DNA from: an uncultured Elusimicrobia bacterium
GTDB taxonomy: Bacteria; Elusimicrobiota; Elusimicrobia; Elusimicrobiales; UBA9959
Length of the DNA stretch: 64,000 nucleotides
Direction: 5' to 3'
Assembly: GCA_903917735.1 (NCBI GenBank)
Contig: CAIXBR010000025.1
Coordinates: forward strand, 9,761-73,760
A program made the translations under genes and the position numbers. Positions 1,270 to 54,825 of this stretch are shown here, piece by piece. Positions within the stretch are counted from its first letter, which is position 1; each line of letters begins with the position of its first letter. The notes below the pieces were generated by a model. It was not told the DNA's origin, searched no databases, and was given only the letters and a program-made list of their open reading frames with translations.

Positions 1270-1412
1270 AATTAGGGCTTCGCATCGGCGCTTCACCTTT
1301 TGTATTATAAATACTACGGGGTGCTTTGGCAAATCTCGCGGTGCCGGCGCCGGTGGGGGAAACTATAAGGCAGGCGCGAATGCCTGGCCGGGAGGTGTAT
1401 CGAAGTAAGTCT

Positions 1413-2531
1413 ATGAAGGATTTTGCCATCCATATAAACCGCAGCGAAATGAAGCTGGGCAACGAGATCCCGCTTCTGTTGAAACTGCGGCTGAAGAACC
1501 TCTTTAAAAGAAATGTCAAAGCCGAAGGCAGGACGCTTGTAATAAACACCTGTATCATCGGCGATTTCCTTGCCACCCTGCCCGCGCTTAGAACATATAT
1601 CGAAAGTACCGGCCGCAGCGTGGACCTTGTCGTCTCTCCGCCGCTAAAACACCTTGCGGAGGCTATCAGGGGCGTTGACCATGTTTTTACGGCGAGATCG
1701 GTCTGGGACCGGCTCATAGAACACGCCGGCGGCAATAAAGCCCCGGGCGGAGAATACGCCCATGTGCAACTTTTAAGAACAAGCCCCGACGCCGATTCCC
1801 TGCTTAAGCGCATAAAATATTCCAGCCTCGGCACCTACGAGGGCCCGTATTTCAAATATATCGTACATCTCGTTAAAAGCATCTTGTTCAAAACCCCTCT
1901 CAAACAATGGCGCGAGGTCAGCTATGAGTTCGTCGGCCTGAAAGAGCCCGCCCGGAGGCCGGGGTTCGAGGACATATTCGGCTTCTCAGAAATAGATATT
2001 TCCGCCGCCGCCGCCCTCCCGGAACTGTCGGGCGGGGAGAAGAAGGTCCTGATCCATTCCGGCTCCGGCTGGCACATAAAATTGTGGGAGAACGCGAAGT
2101 GGGCGGACCTGCTGAGAAAGATACACGGGTCCGGGAACTATAAAATCATATTTATAGGCAGCGGCGCTTTCGAGGAGGCGTCCTTTAACCAGATCCGTGA
2201 TAGCCTGGATTTCAAGATCTATTCCCTGGTAAACAAAATAGATATCGGTACCACAATGCTGGTAATGCGGCTGTGCGATTATTTTATCGGCATTGACAGC
2301 GGGCCGCGGAACATGGCCCACCTGGCGGACCTGCGCAGCATAACCCTGCTGGGCCCGGCCCCCAACAACTTCATGCCGGTCAACCCGGACGATATCGTGA
2401 TAAACAAGTTCGACTGCAGATGCAAGAGCCTTTTTTATCTGCACAAGATCTCCGGCATGCAGAAGATCTCCGCGGACGAGGTTTTTGAAAATTTCAGGAA
2501 ACTTGCAAAAAGCAAGTCCGGGCGTAACTGA
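1413..2531 (+). CDS. Glycosyltransferase family 9 (LPS heptosyltransferase-like)
   Basis: ORF 1326..2531. Start placed at ATG 1413 (MKDFAI...); 1326 is not excluded. GT9-type motifs are present: LVINTCIIGDFLATLPALR near the N-terminus, KVLIHSGSGWHIKLWENAKWADLL in the middle, and YFIGIDSGPRNMAHL (DSGxxH) near the C-terminus. Confidence 0.7.
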   Translation: MKDFAIHINRSEMKLGNEIPLLLKLRLKNLFKRNVKAEGRTLVINTCIIGDFLATLPALRTYIESTGRSVDLVVSPPLKHLAEAIRGVDHVFTARSVWDRLIEHAGGNKAPGGEYAHVQLLRTSPDADSLLKRIKYSSLGTYEGPYFKYIVHLVKSILFKTPLKQWREVSYEFVGLKEPARRPGFEDIFGFSEIDISAAAALPELSGGEKKVLIHSGSGWHIKLWENAKWADLLRKIHGSGNYKIIFIGSGAFEEASFNQIRDSLDFKIYSLVNKIDIGTTMLVMRLCDYFIGIDSGPRNMAHLADLRSITLLGPAPNNFMPVNPDDIVINKFDCRCKSLFYLHKISGMQKISADEVFENFRKLAKSKSGRN

Positions 2532-13980: not shown

Positions 13981-13984
13981 GGCT

Positions 13985-17240: not shown

Positions 17241-18989
17241 ATGGCACACAAACTCCTCGGCGAAATAATGATCCAGGCGAAATGGATCGACGAAGAGAAA
17301 CTGAACAAGGCGCTCAAGTTCCAGGTTCAGCAGAGCTGCCTTATAGGCGAGGCCCTGGTCAAGCTGCATTACGCCACAGAAGAGCAGGTGGCCATGGCGC
17401 TGGGCAAGCAGCTCGGCATCCCTTACGCCTCCAAAGAGAACCAGATCCTGAACCCCGAAAAGACCCAGGGGCTAGACAAGATGATCCCCGAGAAGTTTGC
17501 CCGCGACAACGCGGTCATTCCGCTGTTCGTGGAGAACAACGTCCTGGCGGTGGCCATGACGGACCCCACCAACATCATGATGATGGACAACATCAAGCTG
17601 GTGTCCGGCATGGAGATACAGCCCTTCATCTCCACCAAGGCCCAGATACTCAAGGTCATAGACGCTTTCTTCCAGGGCCAGACGAACATGATCGACACGG
17701 TGCTGGACAAGGCCGTGGGCGGCAAGGGGGGGGAAACCTCTGATACCGACGTGATCACCGCGGACGGCAAGCTGGACCTGGACAAGGTCATCATCGGCGA
17801 GTCCAAGGGCGCGCAGTCCATAAAGCTGGTCAACGCCATCATGAAGCAGGCGATCAGCGAGCGGACCAGCGACATCCATCTTGAGAAATTCGACGAGAAA
17901 GTGTCCCTGCGCCTGCGCATAGACGGCGTGCTCTACGAGCGCAGCGCCCCGCCGAACGACCTGGTGGACGCGATGATCTCGCGCGTCAAGATCCTTTCGA
18001 AGCTGGATATTTCCGAGCGGCGCCTGCCGCAGGACGGCAGCTTCTCCATAAAGTACCAGAACCGCGTCATAGAGATCCGCGTTTCCGTCTGCCCGACGGT
18101 GTTCGGCGAGAAGCTCGTCATGCGTATTCTGGACAGGGGCTCGGTGGAGCTCAACGTTAAGATCATAGGCTTCGAGCCGCGCCAGATGGAGGACTTCCTT
18201 AAGGCGGCCTCCGCTCCCAACGGCCTTATCTTCCTTACCGGCCCCACCGGCTCCGGAAAGACCACCACGCTTAACGCCGTGCTTAACACTATCAAGTCTC
18301 CCGAACTGAATATCATGACGCTTGAAGACCCCGTAGAAATCAAGATGGAGGGCATCAGCCAGGTGCAGGTAAAGCCGGCGATCGGCCTCACCATGGCCTC
18401 CGGCCTGCGCTCCTTCCTCCGCCAGGACCCCGACGTCATCCTGGTCGGAGAGGTCCGCGACAACGAGACAGCCGAGGCGTGCCTGAAGGCCGCCATGACG
18501 GGCCATCTCGTGCTTTCCACTCTGCACACCAACAGCGCCCTGGAAGCCATTCCGCGTCTGCTGGACATGGGCATAGAGCGCTACCTGCTCGCCAGCACCC
18601 TGCTCTGCCTGGCCGCCCAGCGCCTGGTGCGCCAGCTCTGCCCCGAATGCAGGATCCCCTACCGGCCCCCGCAGTCCGAGTTGGACCAGCTGGCCGCTGA
18701 GTCCATGCTTAACCCGCTTCCCGACCTGACCAGGCTGACTTTTTACAAGCCCAAAGGCTGCCCCAGGTGCAACAACATGGGCTACAAGGGCCGCAAGGCC
18801 ATCTACGAGGTGTACTTCAACACCGAGGAGATGAAGAAGATCATCTACAAGGACGCCGACGTCCAGAAGATAGCCGTGGAAGCCGCCAAGAGCGGCGCGT
18901 GGAACCTGCGGGCCAGCGGCTGGCGCAAGGTCCTGGCAGGCGTCACCTCCGTGGACGACATGCTCTCCGTAACGGTGAGCGAGCGCTAA
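17241..18989 (+). CDS. pilB: Type IV pilus assembly ATPase PilB (GspE family)
   Basis: T2SSE_N/MshEN-like N-terminus. Walker A GPTGSGKTTTLNA, Asp box, Walker B DPDVILVGEVRD, His box LVLSTLHTN. Tetracysteine motif CPECRIPY...CPRCNNMG. Confidence 0.92.
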   Translation: MAHKLLGEIMIQAKWIDEEKLNKALKFQVQQSCLIGEALVKLHYATEEQVAMALGKQLGIPYASKENQILNPEKTQGLDKMIPEKFARDNAVIPLFVENNVLAVAMTDPTNIMMMDNIKLVSGMEIQPFISTKAQILKVIDAFFQGQTNMIDTVLDKAVGGKGGETSDTDVITADGKLDLDKVIIGESKGAQSIKLVNAIMKQAISERTSDIHLEKFDEKVSLRLRIDGVLYERSAPPNDLVDAMISRVKILSKLDISERRLPQDGSFSIKYQNRVIEIRVSVCPTVFGEKLVMRILDRGSVELNVKIIGFEPRQMEDFLKAASAPNGLIFLTGPTGSGKTTTLNAVLNTIKSPELNIMTLEDPVEIKMEGISQVQVKPAIGLTMASGLRSFLRQDPDVILVGEVRDNETAEACLKAAMTGHLVLSTLHTNSALEAIPRLLDMGIERYLLASTLLCLAAQRLVRQLCPECRIPYRPPQSELDQLAAESMLNPLPDLTRLTFYKPKGCPRCNNMGYKGRKAIYEVYFNTEEMKKIIYKDADVQKIAVEAAKSGAWNLRASGWRKVLAGVTSVDDMLSVTVSER

Positions 18990-19053
18990 CTGCCGGCGGC
19001 GGCATGCGCCTTGAATCTGCTGGCCTAATTTAGTTAAATTTCAGCGGGGAACT

Positions 19054-20277
19054 ATGGGAAAATTCATATACACCGTTCAGGACGCCCAGGGCACGGTCAC
19101 GACCGGCGCCATGGACGCCGACGACGAGGACGGCGCGGTACAATCCCTGCAGACAAAAGGGCTTTTCATCCTCTCCATACAGGCGGAGGACACTAAGGCC
19201 AGGGGCATACTGAACATCAGGAAGTTCAAAAGCGGCAAAGTATCCGGCCGTGAGATGGTGTTCTTCGGTGAGCAGATGGCCACGCTGATAGGCGGCGGCA
19301 TCCCGTTGGTGCGCGCCCTGTCGCTCTTGAGCGAGCACACCGACAACAAGAACCTGGGCGCGGTGCTGGGCGCCATCACGAAGGAAGTCTCCGCCGGCGG
19401 CGCCTTCCACAAGGCCCTGGAAAAACACCCCAAGGTGTTCGACGAGATATGGGTCTCCCTGGTGCAGGCCGGCGAGGTTTCCGGCCAGCTCCCGGCCGTG
19501 CTCCGCCAGATAACCAATTACAGCGAATCCCAGGAGAACGTAAAGTCCAAGATCATCACCGCTATCTCCTACCCCGCCGTGCTGATGACGATGTCGATGG
19601 GCGTGCTGATCTACTTCGTGCTCTACATCGTGCCGGTGTTCGCGGGCATCTTCCGCGACTTTAACCTGACGCTGCCGCTGATAACCCGGATGATAGTGGG
19701 CATCTCCGCCGTAGTGGCCAGGTTCGCCGTGCTGGGGATAGTCAGCGCTATAGCCGGCGTCTTCGCCTTCCGCGCCTACATTTCCACTCCGCCCGGACGC
19801 CTTACCTGGAACCACGTCACGTTCGGCCTCCCGCTGGTCGGCGACCTGGTCCGCTCCATGCAGATAGAGCGCCTGCTTACGACCATGGCCACGCTGATAC
19901 GCTCGGGCGTCAGCATCCTGAACGCGGTGTCGGTGCTGGAGGGGGCTTTCAAGAAGAACCTTATCTTCCAGAACGCCCTAAAAAAAGCCAAGAACGACAT
20001 CGCCAGCGGCCGCTCTATCTCCGAATCCTTCAAAAAGACGGGTATCTTCCCGCCTATGGTGACCGAGATGATGTGGATGGGAGAGGAATCCGGCAAATTG
20101 CCTGATATCATCGGCGTGCTTTCCAAGTATTACCAGGAGCAGATAGACCAGTGGCTGCGGCGCTTCTCTTCAATGATCGACCCGATACTGGTGGTGGGCA
20201 TCGGCGGCATAATCGGCGTCATCGTGATGAGCATCTTCATGCCTATCTTCCAGCTGTCACAGATCAGCTCCGGCTAG
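19054..20277 (+). CDS. pilC: Type IV pilus platform protein PilC (GspF family)
   Basis: 407 aa with two T2SSF repeats (FFGEQMATLIGGGIPLVRALSLL and ERLLTTMATLIRSGVSILNAVSVL). Three TM blocks. Position after pilB. Confidence 0.92.
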   Translation: MGKFIYTVQDAQGTVTTGAMDADDEDGAVQSLQTKGLFILSIQAEDTKARGILNIRKFKSGKVSGREMVFFGEQMATLIGGGIPLVRALSLLSEHTDNKNLGAVLGAITKEVSAGGAFHKALEKHPKVFDEIWVSLVQAGEVSGQLPAVLRQITNYSESQENVKSKIITAISYPAVLMTMSMGVLIYFVLYIVPVFAGIFRDFNLTLPLITRMIVGISAVVARFAVLGIVSAIAGVFAFRAYISTPPGRLTWNHVTFGLPLVGDLVRSMQIERLLTTMATLIRSGVSILNAVSVLEGAFKKNLIFQNALKKAKNDIASGRSISESFKKTGIFPPMVTEMMWMGEESGKLPDIIGVLSKYYQEQIDQWLRRFSSMIDPILVVGIGGIIGVIVMSIFMPIFQLSQISSG

Positions 20278-31706: not shown

Positions 31707-32086
31707 TGTGCCCAGCATGAAACCAAGCTAGGAGGTGAAAGTCCTCCGAGGAGACAGGTCGCAGAAAACTCAAGCGAAACGCAAGGCGGTCAGCCGCGAG
31801 GCCGACGCTGAAAGAAGCGCGTAGCGAAAGTCCGAGCCGACGAACAGAAACTGGATAAGAGGCGCTGCCGACCGGGGCGAGCGGGCAAATGACCGCGAAG
31901 CCCCTGCGACCAAAGGGCGGCGGCGTAAATCCGGCGGTTGCGGATGGAAGGGTTGGTTTCTTACCTGGGGAGGTCTCGCCTTATGCCCGAAAGGGCGACC
32001 TGCGAAGCGGGGAGCGAGAAGTCAGCAGAGGCCGTAGTACCCGCGTAGGCGGGGAAGGGCCGAACAGAAGGAGAGCTAAACCTGAC

Positions 32087-33476
32087 ATGAACCTTGAAGA
32101 CACCGGGCGGCACAAGTCCATACAGATGGAGCTGCCGTTGCTGTACAGCGGTGAAACCGCTGGAAGGCGGCGGAGCGCCGAAGCGTTGACGGCGGTTTAT
32201 GACGAGGGTAGTTCAAGCGGCCACCGCCTGATGGAATGGGTGGTGGAGAACGGGAACATGGAGTGCGCGCAGAAGCGAGTGCGGCGCAACAGGGGCAGTC
32301 CGGGCATAGACGGGATGAACGTTGAGGAGTTGCCGGAGTATCTGGCTGCGGCGTGGGGGCAAATCCGGCTGGAGTTGTTGGCCGGGACCTACCAGCCCAA
32401 GTCGGTGAAACGGGTAGAAATCCCGAAACCGAACGGTGGGGTACGACAATTGGGTATCCCGACGGCGGTAGACCGGATGATACAGCAGATGGTGCTGAAC
32501 GTTCTGCAACCGGAGTTTGACCGGACATTCTCGGAGCACAGTTACGGTTTCCGGCCCGGACGGAGCGCGCAGCAGGCGGTGAAGGCGGCGCGGAGCTACA
32601 TTCAGGACGGGCGCGTGTGGGTGGTTGACGTTGACCTTGAGAAGTTCTTTGACAGGGTGAACCACGACATACTGATGAGCCGGCTGGCTAGGAGGATAAA
32701 GGATAAACGGGTGCTGGGGCTAATCCGCCGCTACCTTGAGGCCGGAGTAATGGCGCACGGGGTGGTGGCGGAGCGGTGGGAGGGCACGCCGCAGGGCGGG
32801 CCGTTGTAACCGCTGCTGGGCTAACGTGCTATTGGACGAGGTTGATAAAGAGCTGGAGAAGCGGGGCCACGCGTTTGTGCGCTACGCGGACGACGGGAAC
32901 GTATACGTTCGGTCGGAGGCGGCGGCGCTGGGCGTGATGGAAACGCTGAAGCGTTTATACGCGAAACTACGGCTGAAAATCAACGAGGCCAAGAGCGGGG
33001 TCAAGCGTGTGCGGGACAGTCAATACTTGGGCTACGGTATTTGGGTGACCAAGGGGATTGTCAGGCACTGCGTGAGCCGGAAAGCCCTGAAGGCGATGAA
33101 GGCGCGTGTGCGGCAGATAACGCAGCGCAAAGGCGGACGAAGTCTGGAAGAGATGGCGAAAGAGCTAAAGGCGTACCTGCCCGGCTGGAAGGAGTATTTC
33201 CAGTTGGCGGAGACCCCCGGCATATTCGCTGGATTGAACGGATGGATACGTCGCCGATTGAGGATGGTACGTCTGAAACAGTGGAAAAGAGGGAGGACGA
33301 TATACCGGGAACTGCGTGCTGCGGGCGTTTCACCCAAAGCCGCGGCCTCGGTGTCTGCCTGCCCGCGCCGCTGGTGGAGGATGGCCGGGACCTCGGCGCT
33401 TAACGTCGCAATGCCGAACAGCTGCTTCGCGAAACTTGGTGTTCCCCGGCTGGCGGAGGTAAATGCCGCTTTCTGA
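32087..33476 (+). pseudogene. Group II intron-encoded reverse transcriptase/maturase, disrupted (nonsense + frameshift)
   Basis: ATG 32087 with AAGGAG upstream. RT motifs are present: GSPGIDGMNVEEL, IPKPNGGVRQLGIPTAVDRMIQQ, YGFRPGRSAQQAV, VVDVDLEKFFDRVNHD, FVRYADDGNVYV. A maturase X-like region follows (GWKEYFQL...RRRLRMVRLKQWKR). The conserved GTPQGGPLSPLLANVLLD reads GTPQGGPL-TAA-PLL-G(+1 nt), so the frame is lost at 32807..32820. Confidence 0.8.
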
Positions 33477-45378: not shown

Positions 45379-45645
45379 TCATTTGCCCCTGTATTTAGGG
45401 TCGTTATACATTTTAAACTGGCGGTAGATCTTGAGCTTGACCTTGCCGGACGCTACTTCGGAGACCAGTTGCGTCAACTCGTCCTCCAGGTCTTTTTTCT
45501 GCGCCGCCATCACTTCGAGCCTGGAAGCGCAGGCAGCCTTGTGCTCAACGGAGGCGTCCGCTCGGGAGACCTGCTCTTTCATGTGATATATCTTCAGCTG
45601 GATGATGCTGAGCTTATCGGCCAGGCTGCCTATCGTTTCAGCCAT
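45379..45645 (-). CDS. Small coiled-coil protein, DUF4254-related (88 aa)
   Basis: GGAGG lies 6 nt upstream of ATG 45645. [23 protein letters not shown] resembles the (D/E)xLSIxxLKxWH helix of DUF4254-type proteins. It overlaps the upstream small ORF by 8 nt. Confidence 0.5.
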
Positions 45646-45835
45646 TTATAGCCTCCAGCACTTTTTCGTCAATGCGCTCTATCAGGTCGTTGCGCTTTTG
45701 ATTAAGTTTGTCGATATTTTTTTTAGCGGCGGCTATGGCGGGAACGTCGCCTACCCTGGCCTTATCCTCTTCATGCCAGAGTTCCGTGTTGGTCAGAGCA
45801 AGTTCGCTTACAAGTTTGCCTATTCCGTCGTTCAT
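45638..45835 (-). CDS. Small DUF4254-like protein (65 aa)
   Basis: GAGG lies 7 nt upstream of the [17 protein letters not shown]...[16 protein letters not shown] matches the LWxxED...R / DxxNxxRxxxIxxID pattern I associate with DUF4254, which is often found next to heptosyltransferases. Confidence 0.55.
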
Positions 45836-45855
45836 GTTTTTACCTCGCGAAAGAT

Positions 45856-46726: not shown

Positions 46727-48232
46727 TTATCGTTTTGCCGCCAGGCTGGCCGCGTTAAAGACCTCTTCCACGGTAAGCAGCCGCATACAAAGGAAATGGC
46801 CGCGAGGGCATTTTTTTGAACCATGCAGGGCGCAGGGGCGGCACGCCAGCGGGGTTTCCACTACGCGGTTCCCGGGGCCGTAGGGGAAGAAACCCAGCTC
46901 CCGTGTGGTAGGGCCGAATATCCCGACGGCTGGCACACCCATGGCCGCGGCTATATGCATCGGGCCCGAATCGTTAGAGACAAAAACCTTAAGGGGGCGT
47001 ATCGCCTCCATCAGCCCCGGCATGCTGGTCTTCCCGGTAAGGTTAAGGCAGTGCTCCGGGCCGGCCCTGCGCTCTATCCCGGCGTTCCAGTCCTTTTCGC
47101 CCGGACCACCCACCATAAGCACCTTGCCGCCGTAATGCGCGGAGAGCCGCCTGATAAGGCGGGCCCATTTCTCGGCCGGCCAGCGCTTCGTAGGCCAGGC
47201 CGAGCCCGTGTTCACGCCGGCGCACAGGCTTCCGGGAGGGGGGAGGCCGGCCGCGGCTCCGGCGGCGGCCCGCAGGCCGGGGAAGGCCGTCTTGAGGTTC
47301 TCGGCCAGCGGGGAAAGCAGGGACAGGTTGCGCTCCACGTCATGCAGGAGCCAAGAGAAAGGGACCTTGTGCGTAAGGAAGAAACTTCCGGCGCTTGAGG
47401 AAAAACCCACCCGCGCCGGAATGCCGGCCCGCCAGGCCAGCAGCGCACTCCTGAGCGAACGGTGCGGAATAATGGCGGCGTCGAACCCGCGCGCGCGCAG
47501 TTGGGCGGCAAGCCGCCTGAATTCAGCCAGGCCCGAAGCGGCGGTCTTTTTCCTGTCTTCGATTATTTCGGCCGCCAGGCCCGAAGCCGCGAAAATCCCC
47601 GCAGTCTCCGGGCGTGTGACCACCGTAACGGCGGCCCGCGGAAAAACCTCACGCAGCTTTTTAAGCAGCGGCAGCGTCAGCACGCAGTCGCCGAGGAAAG
47701 CGGTCTGCACAAGGCAGATCTTGAGCGGCCCCGGTCCCAGGGCGGGTTTCCCGCCGCCGGGAGTCCAGTCGCCCAGCTCAGGGCCGCGATGCACGGCCGG
47801 CACGTCCAGCGGAGCCAGCACCTCAAGATAGCGGTCAAGCGTGTGCTTCTCAAGCGAGGGACTGGGGATGCGGAAGTCCACGAACAGCCTGCGGGAAAGC
47901 GCCGCCTTGCGGTAGCGCAGTTTTAGCGGCGCGCGGGCCGCCAGGCAGAGCAGGCGGCTGCGCAGCGTGGCGTGCAGGTCTATAATAACATCGTAACCGC
48001 CGGCGTTCACGTCGCGCACAGCCCGCGCTAAGCCGGTGAAAGGGATAACCCGGTCTATAAATGCGCTCTTGGAAACGGCGCCCTGGAACTGGGGCTTGAC
48101 GATTATATCCAACCGCGCCCCGGGCCATTTAGCGCGCAGGTTGCGGAAGACCGGGGCCGTCAGGATGATGTCGCCGAGCGAGGACATCCTGATGACCAGT
48201 ATCTTCGGGTTGTTATTTAGTATGTCAACCAT
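46727..48232 (-). CDS. Glycosyltransferase family 9 with a duplicated N-terminal half (501 aa)
   Basis: Two successive GT9 N-domain starts are seen (KILVIRMSSLGDIILTAPVFRNLRAKWP and KICLVQTAFLGDCVLTLPLLKKLREVFP). One C-domain follows (VFVSNDSGPMHIAAAMG). Confidence 0.8.
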   Translation of the reverse strand: MVDILNNNPKILVIRMSSLGDIILTAPVFRNLRAKWPGARLDIIVKPQFQGAVSKSAFIDRVIPFTGLARAVRDVNAGGYDVIIDLHATLRSRLLCLAARAPLKLRYRKAALSRRLFVDFRIPSPSLEKHTLDRYLEVLAPLDVPAVHRGPELGDWTPGGGKPALGPGPLKICLVQTAFLGDCVLTLPLLKKLREVFPRAAVTVVTRPETAGIFAASGLAAEIIEDRKKTAASGLAEFRRLAAQLRARGFDAAIIPHRSLRSALLAWRAGIPARVGFSSSAGSFFLTHKVPFSWLLHDVERNLSLLSPLAENLKTAFPGLRAAAGAAAGLPPPGSLCAGVNTGSAWPTKRWPAEKWARLIRRLSAHYGGKVLMVGGPGEKDWNAGIERRAGPEHCLNLTGKTSMPGLMEAIRPLKVFVSNDSGPMHIAAAMGVPAVGIFGPTTRELGFFPYGPGNRVVETPLACRPCALHGSKKCPRGHFLCMRLLTVEEVFNAASLAAKR

Positions 48233-48328
48233 ACTAAAAAATTATATCATTTATCAAAATGCGGCCCGTATGGACTTATCCGCGCAGGGTACCGCCGGCG
48301 TTGTAATGAAGATTTAATTTAAATACCA

Positions 48329-48363
48329 TTGACAGGAGACAGGTTTTAGTATATCTATATAAT
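48329..48363 (+). promoter_or_regulatory. AT-rich promoter-like region upstream of the fibre operon
   Basis: Consensus TTGACA at 48329..48334. TATATC (15-nt spacer), TATCTA (17-nt spacer) and a perfect TATAAT at 48358..48363 (23-nt spacer) abut ATG 48364. No Shine-Dalgarno is present, so the mRNA may be leaderless. The exact -10 is ambiguous. Confidence 0.3.
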
Positions 48364-48897
48364 ATGCGCGCAAAACTTGCCGGCACAGCCCTGTTCTTTT
48401 TACTGATAGCGGGATGGCTGTATAATTATTCCGCGGCCCTCATGAAGTCGGGCGTCTACCGCCTGTTCATAAGCGAACAGACCACCGTGGGCAATTCCAT
48501 GCCGAAAACCGGGGGAGCCTACTCCCTGCTGGGCAGCACCGGCCAGCTGGGCGGAGGGGCGCTGGCCGGAGGCAGATATACCGTTACCTGGGGCGTGGTC
48601 AACTCATGGCGCCCGCCGCAGACGGATGTCTCCGCCGCCCACGTCTATCCTAATCCCTGCTACTCCGCTAAAAACTGCAGGGAAATCACCTTCACACGGC
48701 TTACACTTTACGCGACCATAAATGTCTTTACAATTTCCGGGGAAAGGGTTGTTACTATAAAAAAGACCAGCGATATCGACAGCGAAGCGTGGAACCTCCG
48801 CAACGAGGCCGGCGCCAAAGTGGCGAGCGGCCTTTACCTGTACATAATTAATGGCGGCAATTCCACCAAGAAAGGGAAAATAGTGATCGTAAGGTAA
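48364..48897 (+). CDS. Small secreted/anchored protein with C-terminal FlgD-Ig / T9SS-type-A-CTD-like beta-sandwich
   Basis: Hydrophobic N-terminus MRAKLAGTALFFLLIAGWLY. Three xYxL/T motifs surround a Gly-rich stretch. The C-terminal VYPNPC...ITF...INVFTISGERVVTI...WNLRNEAGAKVASGLYLYII...KKGKIVIVR follows the T9SS CTD / FlgD_ig pattern. Confidence 0.65.
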   Translation: MRAKLAGTALFFLLIAGWLYNYSAALMKSGVYRLFISEQTTVGNSMPKTGGAYSLLGSTGQLGGGALAGGRYTVTWGVVNSWRPPQTDVSAAHVYPNPCYSAKNCREITFTRLTLYATINVFTISGERVVTIKKTSDIDSEAWNLRNEAGAKVASGLYLYIINGGNSTKKGKIVIVR

Positions 48898-48902
48898 AAA
48901 CT

Positions 48903-51900
48903 ATGAAAAAACTAATTTTAGCCGCCGCGGTCGCGCTCTGCCTGCCTTTGGGGGCTTTCCCGGGAGATATCAGCATCGGGGCCGTTCCAGGCTCGATAAA
49001 CTACCAGGGCCGCCTGGAGCGCGACAACGCGCCTATAACCGGCATTATTCATCTCCATTTCCGCATCTATAATTCCGCCACAGGCAGCGGCGCGGGGGCC
49101 TGCGGCGGGATAAACCAGCCCTGTCTGTGGATGAGTAATGAAATCCCCGTGGATGCCGCTCAGGGAGTTTTCAGCGCCACACTCACCCCGCCCATAACAG
49201 TATTCTCTTCCTCCCAGCAGCTTTACCTTGAGGTGCAGGTGGAAAGCGACGTGCTGGCCCCGCGCGAACCGCTCAACAGCGTGGCCTACGCGCTTGTGGC
49301 CAAAAGACTGGAGGACGGATCCAGCGTATCTCTTTCATCGCTGACCGCAGCATACCAAGTGTTCCTGGCCACCACCAGCGGCAACAACGTTGGGATAGGC
49401 ACGATCTCTCCGGCGTATAAACTGACAGTCAATGGCTCCATAAAGATGATGGGGGTTACCGATAAAATATATTTTCAGGACGGGACCAGCATGGGGACCG
49501 CCGGGGTCGGAGATGCCGTGGGCGGAGTTACCTCTCCTGGAGGCAGCACTATCGAATCCGGTACCGGCGGCAGCGGCATGATGAGTTTTAAAACCTCTCA
49601 AGTTGAGAGAATGCGAATAGCCGATTCCTCCATGGACGGCAGGGTCGGCATAGGTACTGCGGCTATAACCAGCCCCATGGGGACACTTGATGTGGACGGG
49701 GCATTGTATGTTGGCAACGAGGGGATCTACGACCGGGATGATTCCGAGCTTAATATTAAACAAGACCTGGTGGTCGAAGGCGGGAAGATCAGGGGGACCG
49801 GGAACAACTATCTTTCAATGGGCGAAACCGCCGATACCCTTGTAGCGGCTACCGGCAATACGCCGCGGCTATGGCTCGATTCTTCAGGAAACCTCGGCGT
49901 GGGCGCCGCGGCTGCCGCTGGAGAAAGGGTGCACTCCAACGGCAATCTCCGGGCGGACAAAGGCGTCCGCGGCGACGCGGTTTCCATAGGCAGCTATAGC
50001 GGCTGGGCCACGGCCCCCAACGAAGTACGCTCCCAGGATGGTTCCGACCTGCTGCTGCAGCAGAGCAACCAGTCCTTCAACGTAGGCATCGGCACCGCGG
50101 CGCCGCGCGAGAAGCTGCATGTACACGGCACCGTGCGCGCGGACTACGGCATAGCCGCCGCCACGGCCACCTTCTCCGGTGACGTAAGGATGACCGGAGA
50201 TTTAACCGTCAACGGGAACAATCATCAGGTCTACCTGACCAGCACTACCATCTACGGCAGCCTTCAGGTTAACGGGGAGATGAACTCGCCTATCTTTGGC
50301 AGCCCGGCGTATAAATCATCTACACAGACGTTTACAGGACTGAACACTTTCCTGCACCAGGTGGTGGTCTCAAGCGATATTCTGACGCTTAACCGTATAG
50401 GCGCGGGAGTTTCGGATTTCGATTTCCCCGACACTAAATATCTGCAGGTAGGCGACAGCAAGACTGAATTCGCCCACGATAACGCCATAGCCTACCTGGT
50501 AGGCGGGTCAGCAGCCAACGCCAAGCTTGACTTCTATCGTGGCGGCACCGAGGCCGCGCGCTTCGAAACTCAGAACGGCGCCAACCTGGCGCTGGTGGTG
50601 AATGGCCAGACCAAGACGCTTACCGACGCCACTTACCACCGCATACAGAACAGCGTGGTGTGGATCTCCACAGGCTACGCCTCCACGCCGTCCATCTTCG
50701 TCAGTTCCTGGATGGGCAACGTCGGAATGGGCACCTCGGTGATGGACCCCAACTGGCGCCTGACTGTCAACGGCAACATAAGGATCTCCGGAACCGGCAG
50801 CGGCCTTATCTTCCCGGATGGCACAAGCCTGCTGACCGGCAACCTGTCCGCCACTACGGTCGGCGGCGTGTCCAGCAACGGCAACGCGGTAGTCCAGTCG
50901 GACGCCGACCTGTCAGGCACTGGTAGTGTAGTTCTGCGCGCCGGTTCTGTGGACGGCCTTACGGTAAATTCCGGCGGGAATGTAGGCATAGGCACTTTGG
51001 ACCCTATTTCAAAGCTTAACATACGAGGAGGAGACCTGGTGCTGGGCACACCGGTTACTTACCCAGAGAACGGAATAGAAGACCTGATAGTGGCGGGTGA
51101 TATAGTTTTTGACGGGGCGCTGGTGCAACGCTCCGTTTCCATGGTGAACCTTTCCAACCTGTTAGTGGCCGGCAACGTGTACCTGTCCACGGCCCCGGGA
51201 GCGATGACCGGAATAGGCAACACCAGCCCTGGACATAGCCTGGACGTCACCGGGGATATCAATGCAAGCGGGTCCGTCTTCACCGGAGGAACCGCCCGCA
51301 TTTCCAACACCGGCATCATCGGCAGCGGCGGCACTAACACCACCTGGGACGGGGCAACAATAAACGTGAACCGCGGCGGCACCGGGTCCGCCACGCTGAC
51401 CGCCGGCGCAATACTTTACGGCAACGGGACCTCAGCGATAGGCATGCTGCCTGTGCTTCCGAGCGGGCAGCTGCTGATAGGCAACGGGGCCGGCGCCCCC
51501 ACGGAGGCCGGTCTTACCGGCACCCTTAAGCAGATCACGGTCACACCCGCGGCCGGAAGCATAACTCTTTCACTGCCGCAGAACATAGACGCCACCGCTA
51601 CGCCTGTCTTTGCCGGGATAACCGTAGGCTCTCTTACCGGAGTAATTAAAGGGGCGGCCGGGGTTTTTAGCACTATGAACGGCACTGCCAACTACAGTAC
51701 CTATTGGTCGGACGCCAATACGATAGCGGCTGAGCAATACACGGCTCTTTCCCGCGGTGGCTCCAACGCCGACCTTTCCTCCGTAGCGACCGGTAGTATT
51801 ATTTACAAGGCCGCTTCCGCGCTGGCCGCCACCGGGTCCCTGACCGGCATGCTTAGGGGCAACGGCACCGCAGCCCCCGATGCGATGACCGGGACAGCGA

Positions 51901-52877
51901 ATACCCTGGTCAAATGGGGGACTGGCGGCAGCAATATAATCAATAGCCTGATAACGGATGACGGGACGAACGTCAATATGAACGGCCATGCGGTGATAAA
52001 CGTCTCTTACCCTTCGGCGAACACAGATGCCGCCACAAAGGTCTATGTCGACGACGCGACGGGCAGCGGCAGCTCCAGCCGTGGCTGGAACAAGAACGGC
52101 AATTCACTTTCCGGAGGGGAGTGGTTGGGAAGCAACGACGGCATAAACCTTGTATTTAAAACCAACAGTACAACCGCTATGACCATAACCACAGGCCAGT
52201 ATATACAGCTGACCCACCCGCTGGAGGTAGCTTACGGCGGAACGGGCAACACCACCGGCAATGCGGCGACAGTAACCACGAACGCCAATCTTAACGGCGT
52301 AGTGACGAGCGTAGGCAACACGACCTCTATCGGCATTGGCGCCATAACCAATGCCATGCTGGCCAATACTGCGGTCGCTAACCTGTCCAACACGAACACC
52401 GGTGACGAAACAGCCGCCACCATAAGGACAAAGATAGGCGCGGCGGCGGCTGGTAATGATGGTTATCTGTCGCAGGGAAACTGGACCACTTTCAACAATA
52501 AGCAGCCGGCCGGCAACTATATTACAGGTCTGACTGGAGACGTCACCGCTGCCGGCCCCGGTTCAGTGGGTGCTACTATAGCTAATGGAGCCGTGACCCT
52601 CGCCAAAATGGCTAGTATGGCTACAGCTTCGTTCATCGGGCGTAATTCGGGAGGGGCCGGTGCTCCGGAAGTCTTAGCCGCCGCCACGGTAAAAACCATG
52701 CTTAACCTGTCCGGCACCAACTCCGGCGACCAGACCGATATAACGGGCAACGCGGGCACCGCCACAAAGCCTCAAGTTTCCGGAACAGCGACACACGCCG
52801 TATGCTGGAAAGCCGACGGCTCTTTAGGGTCCTGCTCGACAGTGGTCAGCGGAACCGGAACGTGTACCTGCAGTTAA
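48903..52877 (+). CDS. Giant (1324 aa) secreted phage-tail-fibre-like repeat protein
   Basis: Signal peptide MKKLILAAAVALCLPLGA. Seven copies of an N-V/L-G-I/V/M-G-T...L-x-V-x-G unit. GGTG/GGS knuckle motifs (VNRGGTGSATL, LSRGGSNADL, VAYGGTGNTTG). A tail-fibre-like INVSYPSANTDAATKVYVDDA element. The tail is Gly/Thr/Asn/Ala-rich and ends in a Cys motif. AAGG lies 9 nt upstream of the ATG. Confidence 0.85.
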   Translation: MKKLILAAAVALCLPLGAFPGDISIGAVPGSINYQGRLERDNAPITGIIHLHFRIYNSATGSGAGACGGINQPCLWMSNEIPVDAAQGVFSATLTPPITVFSSSQQLYLEVQVESDVLAPREPLNSVAYALVAKRLEDGSSVSLSSLTAAYQVFLATTSGNNVGIGTISPAYKLTVNGSIKMMGVTDKIYFQDGTSMGTAGVGDAVGGVTSPGGSTIESGTGGSGMMSFKTSQVERMRIADSSMDGRVGIGTAAITSPMGTLDVDGALYVGNEGIYDRDDSELNIKQDLVVEGGKIRGTGNNYLSMGETADTLVAATGNTPRLWLDSSGNLGVGAAAAAGERVHSNGNLRADKGVRGDAVSIGSYSGWATAPNEVRSQDGSDLLLQQSNQSFNVGIGTAAPREKLHVHGTVRADYGIAAATATFSGDVRMTGDLTVNGNNHQVYLTSTTIYGSLQVNGEMNSPIFGSPAYKSSTQTFTGLNTFLHQVVVSSDILTLNRIGAGVSDFDFPDTKYLQVGDSKTEFAHDNAIAYLVGGSAANAKLDFYRGGTEAARFETQNGANLALVVNGQTKTLTDATYHRIQNSVVWISTGYASTPSIFVSSWMGNVGMGTSVMDPNWRLTVNGNIRISGTGSGLIFPDGTSLLTGNLSATTVGGVSSNGNAVVQSDADLSGTGSVVLRAGSVDGLTVNSGGNVGIGTLDPISKLNIRGGDLVLGTPVTYPENGIEDLIVAGDIVFDGALVQRSVSMVNLSNLLVAGNVYLSTAPGAMTGIGNTSPGHSLDVTGDINASGSVFTGGTARISNTGIIGSGGTNTTWDGATINVNRGGTGSATLTAGAILYGNGTSAIGMLPVLPSGQLLIGNGAGAPTEAGLTGTLKQITVTPAAGSITLSLPQNIDATATPVFAGITVGSLTGVIKGAAGVFSTMNGTANYSTYWSDANTIAAEQYTALSRGGSNADLSSVATGSIIYKAASALAATGSLTGMLRGNGTAAPDAMTGTANTLVKWGTGGSNIINSLITDDGTNVNMNGHAVINVSYPSANTDAATKVYVDDATGSGSSSRGWNKNGNSLSGGEWLGSNDGINLVFKTNSTTAMTITTGQYIQLTHPLEVAYGGTGNTTGNAATVTTNANLNGVVTSVGNTTSIGIGAITNAMLANTAVANLSNTNTGDETAATIRTKIGAAAAGNDGYLSQGNWTTFNNKQPAGNYITGLTGDVTAAGPGSVGATIANGAVTLAKMASMATASFIGRNSGGAGAPEVLAAATVKTMLNLSGTNSGDQTDITGNAGTATKPQVSGTATHAVCWKADGSLGSCSTVVSGTGTCTCS

Positions 52878-54151
52878 TTTTTGGGAAACGAACCGCGTAT
52901 AGCGGCCTTTGTTCTTTCAGTGGCGCCGCGCAGGGAGGAGAGGACCTTTAAGGCGTTCTCCTGCGCGGTTTTAAGGGCGGCGGAGTCGGTGAGCAATAAA
53001 TTCAGAGCCTCGGCCATTTGAGGGGCGGTTTCCGCAAGGAAGCCGCCTTTTTCTTTCAGCAGCACGTCCCCGGCGTGACGGGCGTTGCGGTAATTGGGGC
53101 CGAACAGTGCGGGTTTGGCGAACAGGGCTGGTTCCAGCAGATTGTGCCCGCCGGTGTCGTCCAGCGTACCGCCCACAAAACAGACAGTGGAAACGGCGTA
53201 GAAGGCCTGCAGCAGCCCCATGGCGTCCACCAGTAGGCAGTCGGCGGCGGGTGCCGCGCCGGCGCCGGACCAGCGCGTGAACGGGACTTTCCGCTCGTTT
53301 AGAATATTTTCAGTTTCGGCTATACGCTCAAGGTGGCGCGGCACTATGGCCAGTTTAAGCGCGGGGGTCTTCTTTCTAGCTTCCAGCCAGGCGTCGATGA
53401 GAACCGGTTCCTCCGGCGGATGCGAGCTGCCGGCCGTAAAGACCGGCGCGCCCCGCCAGCCTGCGGCGGCTATAAATTCTTTAACCTTATCCTGGCCGGC
53501 GGCCGACGCGCCCAACATATCGTGCTTGAGGTTCCCTGTCACTGAAACCTTATCTTCAAGGCCGGGCAGCAGTCGGAACCTGGCGGCGTCCTCCTCCGTC
53601 TGGGCCAGCACCTGCTTTATCCCGGAGAAAGCCAACCGCGAGAGAGGGCTTATAGTCCGGTACAGGGCTGCGGTACTTGGGGAAATCCTGGCGTTCACCA
53701 TGAATACCGGCACCCCATAGCTGGCGGCGGCATAAAGAGTGGCCGGCCAGATCTCGGTTTCCACCAGCAGCAGGGCCAACGGCCGGTTCTTAGCTATGAA
53801 ATTTGCGGCCAGGGGATAAAAGTCCAGCGGGGCCATCAGCCCCCGGACGCCCAGGCGCGCGGCTTCGGCGCGTCCGGCCGAGGTGGAAGAGGTTATTAAC
53901 AGCGGCGCTTTGAAAGCGGCGGCAAGTTCAGGGGCTAGCTTCGCTATGGCTTTTACTTCGCCCATGGAGGCGGCGTGTATCCATAGGGGGCGGGGGCCCG
54001 GAGCGCCGGCACCTAAAGCCAGGCGCTCCTTAAGTTCTCCGCCCAGGCCTTTCATAAGGGCGCGGCGGGGGGAAAGCAGGAAGAACACGGCATAAAGCCC
54101 CGCTATGACAGGCGCCAGCAGGCTGTAAATAAATAAAAGGATATATCCCAT
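52874..54151 (-). CDS. waaA: 3-deoxy-D-manno-octulosonic acid (KDO) transferase
   Basis: N-terminal TM, PLWIHAASMGEVKAIAKLAPEL, and the C-terminal GT-B motif FVGGTLDDTGGHNLLEPA. 425 aa. Confidence 0.9.
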   Translation of the reverse strand: MGYILLFIYSLLAPVIAGLYAVFFLLSPRRALMKGLGGELKERLALGAGAPGPRPLWIHAASMGEVKAIAKLAPELAAAFKAPLLITSSTSAGRAEAARLGVRGLMAPLDFYPLAANFIAKNRPLALLLVETEIWPATLYAAASYGVPVFMVNARISPSTAALYRTISPLSRLAFSGIKQVLAQTEEDAARFRLLPGLEDKVSVTGNLKHDMLGASAAGQDKVKEFIAAAGWRGAPVFTAGSSHPPEEPVLIDAWLEARKKTPALKLAIVPRHLERIAETENILNERKVPFTRWSGAGAAPAADCLLVDAMGLLQAFYAVSTVCFVGGTLDDTGGHNLLEPALFAKPALFGPNYRNARHAGDVLLKEKGGFLAETAPQMAEALNLLLTDSAALKTAQENALKVLSSLRGATERTKAAIRGSFPKN

Positions 54152-54195: not shown

Positions 54196-54825
54196 TTATT
54201 TTTTCGCGGCGGCGCTCTTCTTTTTTTTCTTCGAGAGCCAGGGCAGGGCGAATACGGCGGAGTATTTGGGGGAGAAAGCGCCTGTGTCGAAAGAGACGCC
54301 TATCTTAGAGGCTTCCAGGCGCTCAAAAAGGGCCTTGATCAGTTCGTTCTCGTAAAGCGGAACGGCGGTGGCTTCCTGCGGGGGCAGGTCCGGCTCGGGG
54401 CAGGCGGCTATATAGATGGCGGGGCCCAGTTCGAAGCCCTCGGGTTCCGCTTCCCTTATGACCAGGTCCGCAGTAACCCCGACGGCCGTCTGCATGAAAA
54501 CCTGGGCCGCTATCCGGCCCAGACGCTTACGCGTGTCGTCCGCGGGGTTCGCCAGTTTCTCTTCGAAACTTTTGCCAAGGGTAAGTATGCCGGCGGTCAG
54601 CGGTTGCCGCGACGCGCCGTTTATCCGGCCCGCTATCTCGTCTTCCGGCGGGAGATATTCGAACACTACGGCGGCCTCGAGGGCGGCGGCAAGGCCGGCG
54701 GCGTGCTCACGCACCGCTTTTTCATCAGCGAGGCCCGCCGCCTCAAGGTCCAGCTTGTGCTTGCGCGCCTTGCGCAGCACCTCGTAGGAGTAGACCGGTA
54801 TTTTGAACTTCTTTATCTTTCGCAT
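54196..54825 (-). CDS. Hypothetical protein (209 aa, poly-Lys C-terminus)
   Basis: Long ORF co-directional with secF/waaA and no TM. It may be distantly related to stand-alone methionine-synthase-activation-domain-like proteins, but I cannot support that from sequence alone. Confidence 0.45.
   Translation of the reverse strand: MRKIKKFKIPVYSYEVLRKARKHKLDLEAAGLADEKAVREHAAGLAAALEAAVVFEYLPPEDEIAGRINGASRQPLTAGILTLGKSFEEKLANPADDTRKRLGRIAAQVFMQTAVGVTADLVIREAEPEGFELGPAIYIAACPEPDLPPQEATAVPLYENELIKALFERLEASKIGVSFDTGAFSPKYSAVFALPWLSKKKKKSAAAKK

Follow-up and report, generated by a model that had tools for sequence, protein, structure and literature searches.

Two adjacent genes of an uncultured Elusimicrobia bacterium, one encoding a small protein of 177 residues and the other a giant protein of 1324 residues, are, as judged from sequence comparison, an old, ancestral two-gene unit of Elusimicrobia. 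The giant protein is very probably a surface fibre of the type described in Bdellovibrio bacteriovorus as mosaic adhesive trimer (MAT), and we hold, with somewhat more belief than doubt, that in Elusimicrobiales this two-gene operon builds a cell-surface fibre together with a small partner. In this account, the giant protein would be a Sec-exported, non-S74 member, or a close analogue, of the MAT fibres, which are bacterial proteins related to phage tail fibres, and its plan would consist of a signal peptide, a base of about 115 residues, a repeat shaft of about 650 residues, and a distal part of about 530 residues. The small protein would be a dedicated secreted partner of the fibre.

The features of the locus are collected in Table 1. 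The window is the whole stretch of DNA that was analysed, 64,000 nucleotides (64 kb) in length. The two ORFs, their flanking genes, and the sequence motifs quoted in a preliminary description of this DNA were all located again. The small gene and the giant gene are separated by a spacer of 5 nt. In the same window, a group II intron reverse transcriptase is encoded at 31.8–33.5 kb.

Table 1. Features of the small gene–giant gene locus (positions within the window)
Feature	Position	Strand	Residues	Remarks
GT9 heptosyltransferase gene	46727..48232	-		One flank of the pair
Conserved upstream region and promoter	48304..48363	+		Hexamers plus conserved upstream motif
Small gene	48364..48897	+	177 aa	ORF
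Small protein, signal peptide	48364..48438	+	1-25	Alignments; AF2 helix 2-28
Small protein, conserved segment	48439..48624	+	26-87	Three Y-x-L/V motifs, Gly-rich linkers
Small protein, T9SS type-A-like beta-sandwich	48625..48897	+	88-177 and stop	TIGR04183, AF2, Foldseek
Giant gene	48903..52877	+	1324 aa	ORF
Giant protein, signal peptide	48903..48965	+	1-21	MKK, then hydrophobic stretch
Giant protein, beta-rich N-terminal domain	48966..49307	+	~22-135	Conserved columns, AF2
Giant protein, conserved shaft	49308..51272	+	136-790	Six xVGxGT...L-x-V-x-G units and a seventh at the C-terminal end
Giant protein, variable distal part	51273..52877	+	791-1324 and stop	Variable alignment columns, tip cassettes
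TTAA palindrome, overlapping stop codons	52874..52877	.		Giant TAA 52875..52877 (+), waaA stop 52874..52876 (-)
waaA (Kdo transferase) gene	52874..54151	-		Other flank of the pair

Strong homologues were identified for both proteins, about 77 for the giant protein and about 91 for the small protein, and all those carrying an organism name belong to Elusimicrobia; with such numbers of homologues, the reality of the two proteins is more than chance. Synteny was counted over 64 species-level Elusimicrobia loci, the denominators being the loci that could be tested for each neighbour. The small gene is located directly upstream of the giant gene in 60 of 61 loci, the GT9 gene upstream of the pair in 52 of 53 (49 divergent and three co-directional), and a convergent waaA downstream of the pair in 36 of 37. 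The two genes also stay together in one locus where the LPS context is lost (L060) and in four where it is rearranged (L006, L059, L062, and L065), and the spacer between them is mostly 4–30 nt across the loci. The small protein, with identity of 56–76% and a length fixed at 177 residues, is more conserved than the giant protein. The two genes thus form a conserved pair, as supposed in the preliminary description, which had proposed conservation of the small ORF with the giant gene as a test, but the words "orphan" and "inserted" used there do not apply, since the arrangement is an ancestral synteny in at least 50 species and the base composition of the locus is ordinary. The maintenance of the pair inside the lipid A/core-oligosaccharide cluster across the order suggests that attachment or expression of the fibre may be coupled to the LPS core.

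The coupling of expression through the stop codons had been put more strongly, as a physical interlock between the giant gene and waaA. The overlap of the two stop codons is present here, there is no room for a terminator between the genes, and no terminator-like site was detected at the overlap, but the interlock is overstated because the overlap is not conserved in relatives: two relatives have gaps of 1 and 9 nt between the giant gene and waaA, and in relatives L004 and L005 the two genes are separated by additional ones.

At the start of the operon, TTGACA (48329..48334) occupies positions -35 to -30 as counted from the A of ATG, and TATCTA (48352..48357) occupies positions -12 to -7, with the canonical spacing of 17 nt, placing the transcription start on the A of ATG. 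A TATAAT (48358..48363) adjoins the ATG at a distance of 23 nt from TTGACA, and thus cannot be the -10 element of a transcript containing that ATG. Both TTGACA and TATAAT, originally proposed as the promoter, are therefore present, but the -10 element is better assigned to TATCTA. Among 26 distinct upstream sequences, 18 have TTGAC precisely at -35 relative to the start codon and 14 have TATCTA at -12 to -7; their consensus reads tAAcaAa.AgTTAActTAAatgtCaTTGACA.gac.c.GgTTTTcaTaTATCTATATAatATG, and a motif, TAACAA..AGTTAAC, is conserved at about -60 to -43. No SD-like purine run is found before the ATG of the small gene, and the conserved promoter geometry fits a leaderless transcript, as had been suspected. 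Both genes would be driven from this one conserved promoter, with the transcription start on the ATG of the small gene.

The signal peptide of the giant protein is common to all its homologues and is modelled by AF2 as a helix at residues 2–12; what it implies is export across the inner membrane. Directly after it follows the N-terminal domain of about 115 residues, in which many columns are invariant (sequence pattern, INYQGRLERDNAP...LYLEVQVESD..PREPLNSVAYA..AKRLEDG) and for which AF2 predicts an all-beta structure with one C-terminal helix (pLDDT 81–91 for residues 30–130). No significant fold match to this domain was found in PDB, in agreement with what is stated for the MAT N-domain (PMC10769870), and neither Pfam nor NCBIfam contains a model that matches it in the giant protein. 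An exhaustive profile search found the domain in 25,879 representative proteins (E ≤ 1e-3). Of the 150 matches listed among these, nearly all have it at about residues 20–150, and a few have it at a more internal position or more than once.

The shaft carries xVGxGT...L-x-V-x-G units at residues 162, 247, 330, 393, 606, 693, and about 770, the seventh being MTGIGNTSPGHSLDVTGDINA. Upon comparison of the giant-family profile with PDB, the top five matches were five distinct MAT sequences of Bdellovibrio, 8ond (Bd2133; E=2.8e-15), 8oml (2.4e-8), 8on4 (1.1e-5), 8ojn/8onb/8onc (Bd3182; 9.9e-5), and 8ol4/8onf (1.6e-4), these PDB entries holding only C-terminal parts of the fibres. The N-terminal domain of the giant protein is present also in six relatives of the Bd2133 shaft; a search with a fragment of Bd2133 itself gave short proteins only. 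The MAT fibres of B. bacteriovorus are characterized by a signal peptide, a conserved beta-rich N-domain of about 130 residues without significant structural match, a trimeric shaft, and variable tips, and fall into S74 and non-S74 subgroups, the latter including Bd2133 and Bd1334 (Caulton et al. 2024; PMC10769870). The giant protein resembles them in the signal peptide followed by a beta-rich N-domain (the N-domains being compared by description only), in the long repeat shaft, which is homologous to the solved beta-helix/beta-prism segments of MAT shafts, in the conserved base with exchangeable C-terminal tips and no S74, and in the kinship with phage tail fibres outside phage context. It differs from MAT in that it represents a single locus conserved order-wide, whereas the Bdellovibrio MATs form a 21-member paralogue set, that its gene is fixed within the lipid A/core gene cluster, that a secreted small protein bearing a C-terminal domain (CTD) of T9SS type precedes it (60 of 61 loci), no such partner being mentioned in the MAT paper, and that its hosts are groundwater and sediment Elusimicrobia, which are not known predators. 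The giant protein had been described as tail-fibre-like, in agreement with these matches to trimeric fibre structures and with the repeat modules in common with S74-bearing fibre proteins; the accompanying statement that no characterized system has this composition does not hold for the giant protein alone, since it matches the MAT fibres.

The structure-prediction test of a fibre fold consists of a monomer model. The AF2 model of the giant protein has low confidence (pLDDT 55; pTM 0.28), confidence being limited to the base domain and isolated blocks, and shows no PDB fold match at E<1e-3. Monomeric solenoids usually receive confident AF2 predictions, and the poor monomer model is compatible with an obligate oligomer and proves nothing. 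The lack of a significant fold match, a composition rich in Gly, Thr, Ala, and Ser, and the name "beta strand repeat-containing protein" given by NCBI to one homologue would agree with a monomeric beta-solenoid adhesin or an S-layer-like coat, with incidental sharing of motifs and with the small protein as an unrelated neighbour. This reading is very unlikely, however, because the profile matches to the trimeric MAT structures are significant and specific, the pattern of confident regions in the model fits an obligate oligomer, and the small gene remains paired with the giant gene, also outside the LPS context.

Across the homologues of the giant protein, residues 1–790 are conserved and the remainder is variable. 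The distal part contains GGTG..LT.G..L.GNGT modules, with GGTG motifs at residues 825 and 1112, and a DAATKVYVD element; the element INVSYPSANTDAATKVYVDDA quoted in the preliminary description is present in the giant protein. The protein ends with a tip of type A, with four Cys (HAVCWKADGSLGSCS...GTCTCS), which is one of at least four tip cassettes (A/B/C/D) among the homologues. These cassettes are uncoupled from base similarity: different tip types are carried by giant proteins that are 93%, 91%, 89%, and 88% identical over residues 20–790, the nearest neighbour has the same tip type in only 36 of 66 giant proteins, and pairs with the same tip have an identity of 0.576 over residues 20–790, compared with 0.561 in pairs with different tips. 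S74 (PF13884) was matched by Pfam neither in the giant protein nor in its last 330 residues; it is absent from all of the about 77 close homologues and is carried by distant matches only. In the present account the distal tip is exchanged by recombination between lineages, and would presumably set what the fibre binds.

Repeats of the type xVGIGT...KL-x-V-x-G are common to the giant protein, the phage S74 fibres (T5 L-shaped fibre and endosialidase family), and the large bacterial S74 fibres, the GGTG..LT.G..L.GNGT modules are shared with S74-bearing fibre proteins, and all these proteins are long, with variable tips. Unlike the phage S74 fibres, the giant protein has no S74, no PHROG match (E≤0.01), and no phage neighbourhood, and carries a Sec signal peptide and a bacterial base domain. 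The tail-fibre-type motifs might be taken to indicate a remnant of a prophage or tailocin, with a domesticated tail fibre newly inserted among the LPS genes, and a BppL_N domain in one homologue points in the same direction, as do two marginal tblastn matches among 50,697 phage records (E=2e-4; one to the distal tail fibre of a Thermus phage, the other to a protein of a Rhodobacter phage) and 108 matches in BFVD, mostly phage fibre-like or S74, which were obtained with the low-confidence model at TM-scores below 0.12. Such an origin is nevertheless extremely improbable, and effectively refuted, given the ancestral synteny with ordinary GC content, the absence of phage structural or integrase families among the scanned ORFs of the window and of phage genes in about 60 related contexts, the lack of a PHROG match, and the combination of a Sec signal peptide with a bacterial N-domain that is found in tens of thousands of proteins. 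The preliminary description had already judged the locus not to be a prophage and had named pairs inside prophages of relatives as its refutation; the pairs of relatives lie outside prophages.

The small protein carries a signal peptide with a nearly invariant Ala at -1 (A25 in at least 90% of sequences). The segment of about 55 residues that follows is nearly invariant, with the motifs Y32-R-L, Y53-S-L, and Y72-T-V around a Gly-rich stretch; E38, K48, Y53, G57, and G63 are invariant in an alignment of 92 sequences, and at least 90% of these sequences also share R33 and Y72, R33 being invariant only in an alignment of 29 sequences. Despite this near-invariance, residues 32–81 gave pLDDT below 50 (AF2 with the 92-sequence alignment), and the segment by itself is predicted to lack structure. 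It has no match in Pfam, NCBIfam, or PDB. The C-terminal domain, VYPNP...SGLYLY...KKGKIVIVR, includes the motifs YPNP, GLY-x-Y, and a C-terminal K-x-K-hydrophobic, scores 36.0 bits with TIGR04183 (cut-off 23) and 25.1 bits with PF18962, just under the gathering score of 27, and is modelled with pLDDT 74–95. Foldseek matched it to PorZ (5m11; E=2e-6), PorU (6za2; 5.8e-5), the NucA CTD (8glk_D; 4.4e-4; TM-score 0.74 on target), and the CTDs of mirolase and RgpB, with FlgD ranked lower, and the small-protein profile matched PorZ in PDB (E=7.7e-4). The domain was initially called T9SS/FlgD-Ig-like, an assignment that these comparisons support. Conservation is about the same in the two halves of the small protein, and two Cys of the CTD are invariant.

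The C-terminal residues of the small protein, about 90 in number, thus match TIGR04183, form the same beta-sandwich as the retained T9SS type A CTDs of PorZ and PorU (P. gingivalis), and are preceded by a Sec signal peptide. Porphyromonas gingivalis attaches T9SS cargo to anionic LPS, and the small gene sits among LPS genes. In a true T9SS system, the small protein would be a cargo transported via a SprA-like translocon, and the fibre would ride on it; either a PorU-like sortase would remove the CTD, with covalent joining of the N-terminal segment to LPS, the product of the neighbouring genes, or a PorV/PorQ-like barrel would retain the CTD. This system would account for the lasting LPS synteny and is in line with the TIGR04183 score, the three sequence motifs, and the best fold matches, one of which was caught in the translocon (8glk_D). 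It is improbable, however, since no T9SS gene was found in the 64-kb window or in the ±10-kb flanks that were read, the literature search gave no report of T9SS in Elusimicrobia, and T9SS is known from Bacteroidota and relatives but is not known from Elusimicrobia. In about 1.2 Mb of Elusimicrobia sequence a single CTD protein was found, a weak sample because the same region is repeated many times. Only about 60 residues, predicted to be disordered, precede the CTD, so that there is no folded passenger domain, and a passenger of this size is atypical for T9SS cargo. The CTD is also, unlike in T9SS cargo, as conserved as the remainder, with the two invariant Cys.

The close tie between the small gene and the fibre gene, and a region of its product that may fold only on the fibre, are reminiscent of the phage tail-fibre assembly chaperones. 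The small protein might be a periplasmic chaperone that guides trimerization and is then released. The conserved segment is disordered alone, as expected for binding to a folding intermediate, the operonic pairing is strict, and S74, which accompanies the same repeats in distant relatives, is missing from the giant protein. Unlike the phage chaperones, the small gene is located upstream rather than downstream, its product is secreted with a T9SS-type CTD, and no sequence similarity to known fibre chaperones was found in the Pfam, NCBIfam, PHROG, and PDB comparisons. We consider such a transient role unlikely, because we know of no fibre chaperone with a T9SS-type sorting or anchoring domain, the two halves are about equally conserved, with two invariant Cys in the CTD, a partner is also missing for other non-S74 proteins that carry this N-domain, and the non-S74 MATs of Bdellovibrio are described without one (PMC10769870).

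As a partner of the fibre, the small protein may instead stay in place as its anchor or adaptor at the outer membrane or LPS, a role that we regard as a serious candidate although short of an even chance. The segment of about 55 residues would fold onto the fibre base, and the T9SS-type CTD would dock the complex to an outer-membrane component or LPS. The segment and the fibre base show a weak residual co-evolution (r about 0.3). A small partner of this kind is lacking for other proteins that carry the N-domain, indicating that the partner is not a general requirement of N-domain fibres. A more specific version, in which the small protein supplies the missing anchor for a MAT-type fibre, its disordered segment clamping the trimeric base with the three motifs and its CTD binding LPS or a PorV-like barrel, has a low probability. 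If true, it would mean that a phylum not known for type IX secretion attaches proteins by a T9SS-like pathway or uses the CTD fold independently of that machinery, and would account for the operon staying in the LPS core cluster.

The attachment of the MAT base was left open in the 2024 paper, which does not identify what the N-domain binds on the cell surface (PMC10769870), and the titles and abstracts of later papers citing it do not address anchoring of the base. The present locus offers a natural candidate, and a single-copy fibre with one small secreted partner, located almost always in the lipid A/core cluster, makes the anchoring question testable. With 25,879 representative clusters, the family of the base domain is very large, and no Pfam or NCBIfam model corresponds to it in the giant protein. 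Tail-fibre-like adhesins with recombining tips are herewith extended to non-predatory, uncultivated Elusimicrobia, in which attachment, be it to particles, to hosts, or to other cells, may depend on the tips.

The two genes were found where the preliminary description had placed them, a small gene for a 177-aa protein and, after a spacer of 5 nt, the gene for the giant protein of 1324 aa, flanked by a divergent GT9 heptosyltransferase gene on the left and the convergent Kdo transferase gene (waaA) on the right. All sequence motifs listed before were recovered: seven xVGxGT...L-x-V-x-G units, the GGTG motif twice, the DAATKVYVD element and, in the small protein, the features described for it. 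The stop codons of the giant gene and waaA indeed share TTAA in the window, and no terminator-like site was detected there, in line with the remark that no room is left for a terminator, but the overlap is not kept in relatives. The wider window carries a lipid A/Kdo/heptose cluster (LptC, KdsD, KdsA, KdsB, PfkB kinase, LpxK, two GT9 enzymes and a polysaccharide deacetylase), which is followed by SecDF-YajC.

A total of about 77 strong homologues were identified for the giant protein (42-65% identity, 1000-1450 aa) and about 91 for the small protein (46-76% identity, nearly all exactly 177 aa), the small protein being the better conserved, and every organism-named homologue of either protein belongs to Elusimicrobia. 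A synteny scan, limited to one genome per species, gave 66 loci, of which 64 hold a clear homologue of the giant. The small gene was located immediately 5' of the giant gene in 60 of the 61 loci with enough flank (three loci were checked by hand), and thus the small ORF is kept with the giant gene; a large GT9 gene was found upstream in 52 of 53 loci (49 divergent and 3 co-directional), and convergent waaA downstream in 36 of 37. The pair was therefore wrongly described as inserted between LPS core genes: the order of the pair, GT9 and waaA is kept across species, and the GC content of the pair is ordinary (0.53-0.60, like the remainder of the window). In the members that diverge most (32-38% identity) the arrangement of the LPS genes differs, with adjacency kept, and in one MAG (L060) the pair stands between isoprenoid genes and a transporter, the two genes still together. 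Since synteny is kept across the loci and the pair is intact in L060 outside the LPS context, the unit is formed by the two genes together, and an old, almost universal linkage joins it to the LPS core genes. The alternative that the locus is a prophage remnant is effectively excluded, because phage databases gave only two marginal sequence matches and no PHROG, and because no phage structural gene was detected among the window ORFs scanned, as had been stated, nor any phage gene in the related gene contexts read in detail.

Positions of the features in the window and in loci (L numbers) with homologues of the giant protein or its base domain in related genomes
Feature	Sequence	Positions	Strand	Description
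Further GT9 gene	window	1326..2531
Two tandem large proteins	window	5344-10384		805 and 868 aa; each O-antigen ligase-like Wzy_C with C-terminal TPR repeats
Type IV pilus/T2SS-like cluster	window	10501-20277		624-aa OmpA-C-terminal-domain protein, PilM-like, PilO-like, 253-aa ORF without assigned family, secretin, PilB-type ATPase, PilC-type platform protein
Group II intron	window	31790-33476		Rfam D1-D4 models match at 31790..32060
Intron reverse transcriptase/maturase, first ORF	window	31889..32809		RVT_1
Intron reverse transcriptase/maturase, second ORF	window	32826..33476		remaining RVT_1 and GIIM, in a different frame
DUF4254	window	45379-45850		two adjoining short ORFs, about 65-73 aa and 88-95 aa
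Upstream motif	window	48304-48325		TAACAA..AGTTAAC(T)TAAA, conserved
TATAAT hexamer	window	48358..48363		rejected as -10 element
Small gene	window	48364..48897	+	177 aa
Giant gene	window	48903..52877	+	1324 aa
Base domain of giant	window	48966-49307		no model matched in Pfam or NCBIfam
209-aa gene	window	54196-54825		between waaA and secF; no Pfam or NCBIfam family match
Two extra genes	L004	13646-16494		between giant and waaA, same strand as giant; 519 aa (GILT thiol-reductase-like domain) and 425 aa (no family)
Long frame holding small gene	L049	8112-9974		621 codons, stop to stop
Long frame holding small gene	L053	8767-9975		403 codons, stop to stop
Giant homologues of CAZJUL01 MAG	L061 / L072	1878-3548 / 4166-4825		on two contigs of one MAG
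Laminin_G_3/CTD protein	L074	8742-14703		>2350 aa; Laminin_G_3 domains and Por_Secre_tail/FlgD_ig C-terminal domain

Near the fibre operon, no machinery for export across the outer membrane is visible other than the secretin system of the pilus/T2SS-like cluster. The split of DUF4254 also occurs in L001, L003 and L005 and is therefore not an error, and the 209-aa gene is kept in nearly all relatives (25-87% identity). In the CAZJUL01 MAG, giant homologues are carried on two contigs, one of which shows the usual order of GT9, small and giant genes; on the other contig the giant homologue (44% identity) lacks a small gene within 1.8 kb upstream, and this copy may be a paralogue or else an artefact of binning. 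The frames holding the small gene in L049 and L053 are far longer than elsewhere, and an N-terminal extension or fusion of the small protein is possible there. The thiol-reductase-like protein of L004 attracts attention because the fibre tips are Cys-rich.

The 60 nt 5' of the small gene are conserved among species whose proteins are only about 60-70% identical. Counted from the A of ATG, TTGAC stood at exactly -35 in 18 of 26 distinct upstream sequences, and TATCTA at -12 to -7 in 14. The TATAAT hexamer, noted before as part of a consensus promoter, abuts the ATG and hence is not the -10 element. The earlier suggestion of a leaderless start without Shine-Dalgarno sequence gained support, because the spacing of TTGAC and TATCTA is fixed relative to the ATG and no Shine-Dalgarno-like run is present upstream; this geometry fits a leaderless transcript that would start at 48364. 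Nearly all loci have only a short spacer between the small gene and the giant gene, which fits one operon. The conserved motif about 43-60 nt upstream of the ATG lies within the intergenic region shared with the divergent GT9 gene, and may be the site of a regulator or belong to the GT9 promoter.

With the giant sequence alone as query, Pfam, PHROGs, NCBIfam, PADLOC and PDB gave no match. Its tail-fibre-like nature was borne out by the family profile, of which the best five matches in PDB were five distinct fibre sequences of Bdellovibrio bacteriovorus, 8ond (Bd2133; E=2.8e-15), 8oml (2.4e-8), 8on4 (1.1e-5), 8ojn/8onb/8onc (9.9e-5) and 8ol4/8onf (1.6e-4), followed by phage tail fibre gp9 (1e-3). 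These Bdellovibrio proteins, the mosaic adhesive trimer (MAT) fibres, are intertwined trimers on the cell surface and kin of phage fibres, each with a signal peptide, a conserved beta-rich N-terminal domain of about 130 aa without significant PDB fold match, and diverse C-terminal tips; among 21 MATs, the S74 chaperone stands at the end in 13 and not in 8 (Caulton et al. 2024, PMC10769870). The giant protein is similar in its signal peptide, the following beta-rich domain of about 115 aa and the diverse tips, and resembles the non-S74 subgroup in that no S74 domain was found by Pfam scan of the whole protein and of its C-terminal part; distant relatives with its repeat modules do carry S74. 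On these sequence features, the giant would best be filed as a member of the MAT kind in the non-S74 subgroup. One main rival to an anchoring role of the small protein is that it acts in trans as an assembly chaperone in place of S74.

Residues 1-790 of the giant are conserved in the alignment with dozens of invariant positions, and the last 530 residues or so are variable. Within the AF2 model the base domain (residues about 22-135) is predicted with the highest confidence (pLDDT 81-91), and no significant PDB fold match was obtained for it. The domain belongs to a very large protein family: when its profile was searched exhaustively, 25,879 representative proteins matched at E<=1e-3 and 2,625 at 1e-10, and in nearly all of the 150 matches listed it is located at about residues 20-150, directly after the signal peptide. 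Cluster look-ups of 20 relatives of this domain gave mostly Elusimicrobiota MAG proteins. Next after the orthologues come other Elusimicrobiota proteins, 600-1000 aa long, and therefore some lineages have several such fibres. A search with the Bd2133 shaft fragment returned only proteins of <360 aa, six of which also carry the base domain.

The AF2 monomer model of residues 1-1200 showed mean pLDDT 55 and pTM 0.28, and Foldseek of the monomer model against PDB gave no match at E<1e-3. The poor monomer model is compatible with an obligate oligomer and is no demonstration of a fibre fold. Another main rival would make the giant a monomeric adhesin built of repeats. The 108 matches of the model in BFVD to predicted viral fibre-like and S74 proteins give soft support only, because the TM-scores are negligible (below 0.12).

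At least four unrelated C-terminal tip cassettes were distinguished, A (the type in the window, n=22), B (n=42), C (n=3) and D (n=4). The mean identity over residues 20-790 was 0.576 for same-tip pairs versus 0.561 for different-tip pairs, the nearest neighbour had the same tip type in 36 of 66 cases, and pairs with bases 93%, 91%, 89% and 88% identical carry different tips. The tips are thus mosaic, and the tip type is almost independent of base similarity. No meaningful DNA repeats were found as a source of the tip variation. A diversity-generating retroelement was rejected as such a source, the nearby reverse transcriptase being that of a group II intron; its split into two ORFs suggests a frameshift, decay or assembly error.

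The small protein starts with a cleavable-looking signal peptide, Ala25 at -1 being nearly invariant in the alignment. The FlgD-Ig/T9SS-CTD-like nature ascribed to its C-terminus was upheld: it scores 36 bits with the NCBI model for T9SS type A, above the cut-off of 23, and falls narrowly below the T9SS model of Pfam (25.1 against 27). Residues 88-177 form a confident beta-sandwich in AF2 with the 92-sequence alignment, and in PDB the folds that match best belong to the CTDs of PorZ (E=2e-6) and PorU (5.8e-5), followed by that of NucA captured in the translocon (4.4e-4; TM-score 0.74 relative to the target), with mirolase and RgpB also matched and FlgD lower in the ranking; at the sequence level the small-protein profile matched PorZ (7.7e-4). 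The invariant residues of the CTD are P96, N97, P98, C99, C105, the run G156-L157-Y158, and G171. In the middle segment of about 60 aa, E38, K48, Y53, G57 and G63 are invariant among the 92 sequences, and many more residues, including R33 and Y72, are conserved in at least 90%. Residues 32-81 show pLDDT <50 despite this conservation, and gave no known match in family and PDB profile searches; a segment conserved yet not folding alone would be expected of a region ordered on a partner.

In the preferred account, both proteins, having signal peptides, would cross the inner membrane via Sec. The giant would form a MAT-type fibre, putatively trimeric and surface-displayed, with the conserved base toward the cell and the recombining tip outward; homology and mosaicism are observed here, and trimeric state and orientation are carried over from the Bdellovibrio work. 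The disordered segment of the small protein may bind the fibre base, its CTD may fix the complex to an outer-membrane component or LPS, and the lasting place among lipid A/core genes may reflect coupling of the fibre with the outer membrane or LPS. For MATs, the surface element bound by the N-domain was called unidentified (PMC10769870), and the question of what it binds is not addressed in titles or abstracts of later papers citing that study.

Several observations count against the anchor model. In a mirror-tree test the residual correlation between the small segment and the fibre base was weak (r 0.31-0.38) and no higher than between the giant's own parts. Other fibres with the same base domain lack such a partner, none being found beside base-domain proteins in the contexts examined. 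No T9SS genes were detected in the available sequence (window and flanks), and no report of T9SS in the phylum was found in the literature. A further main rival is that the pair is a true T9SS cargo/attachment system; no CTD-bearing protein other than the small one was found in the window and all loci. Separately, the Laminin_G_3/CTD protein of L074 is encoded 3' of a distant fibre of S74 type that shares the base domain, so that fibres and CTD proteins are neighbours in another lineage too, in different form.

Three features are new: a small partner that is obligatory and has a T9SS-type CTD, a fixed place inside the LPS core cluster, and a conserved promoter of leaderless type, all in a phylum without known type IX secretion. 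The locus is moderately interesting at present, and would be considerably more so if the small partner proves to be the anchor.
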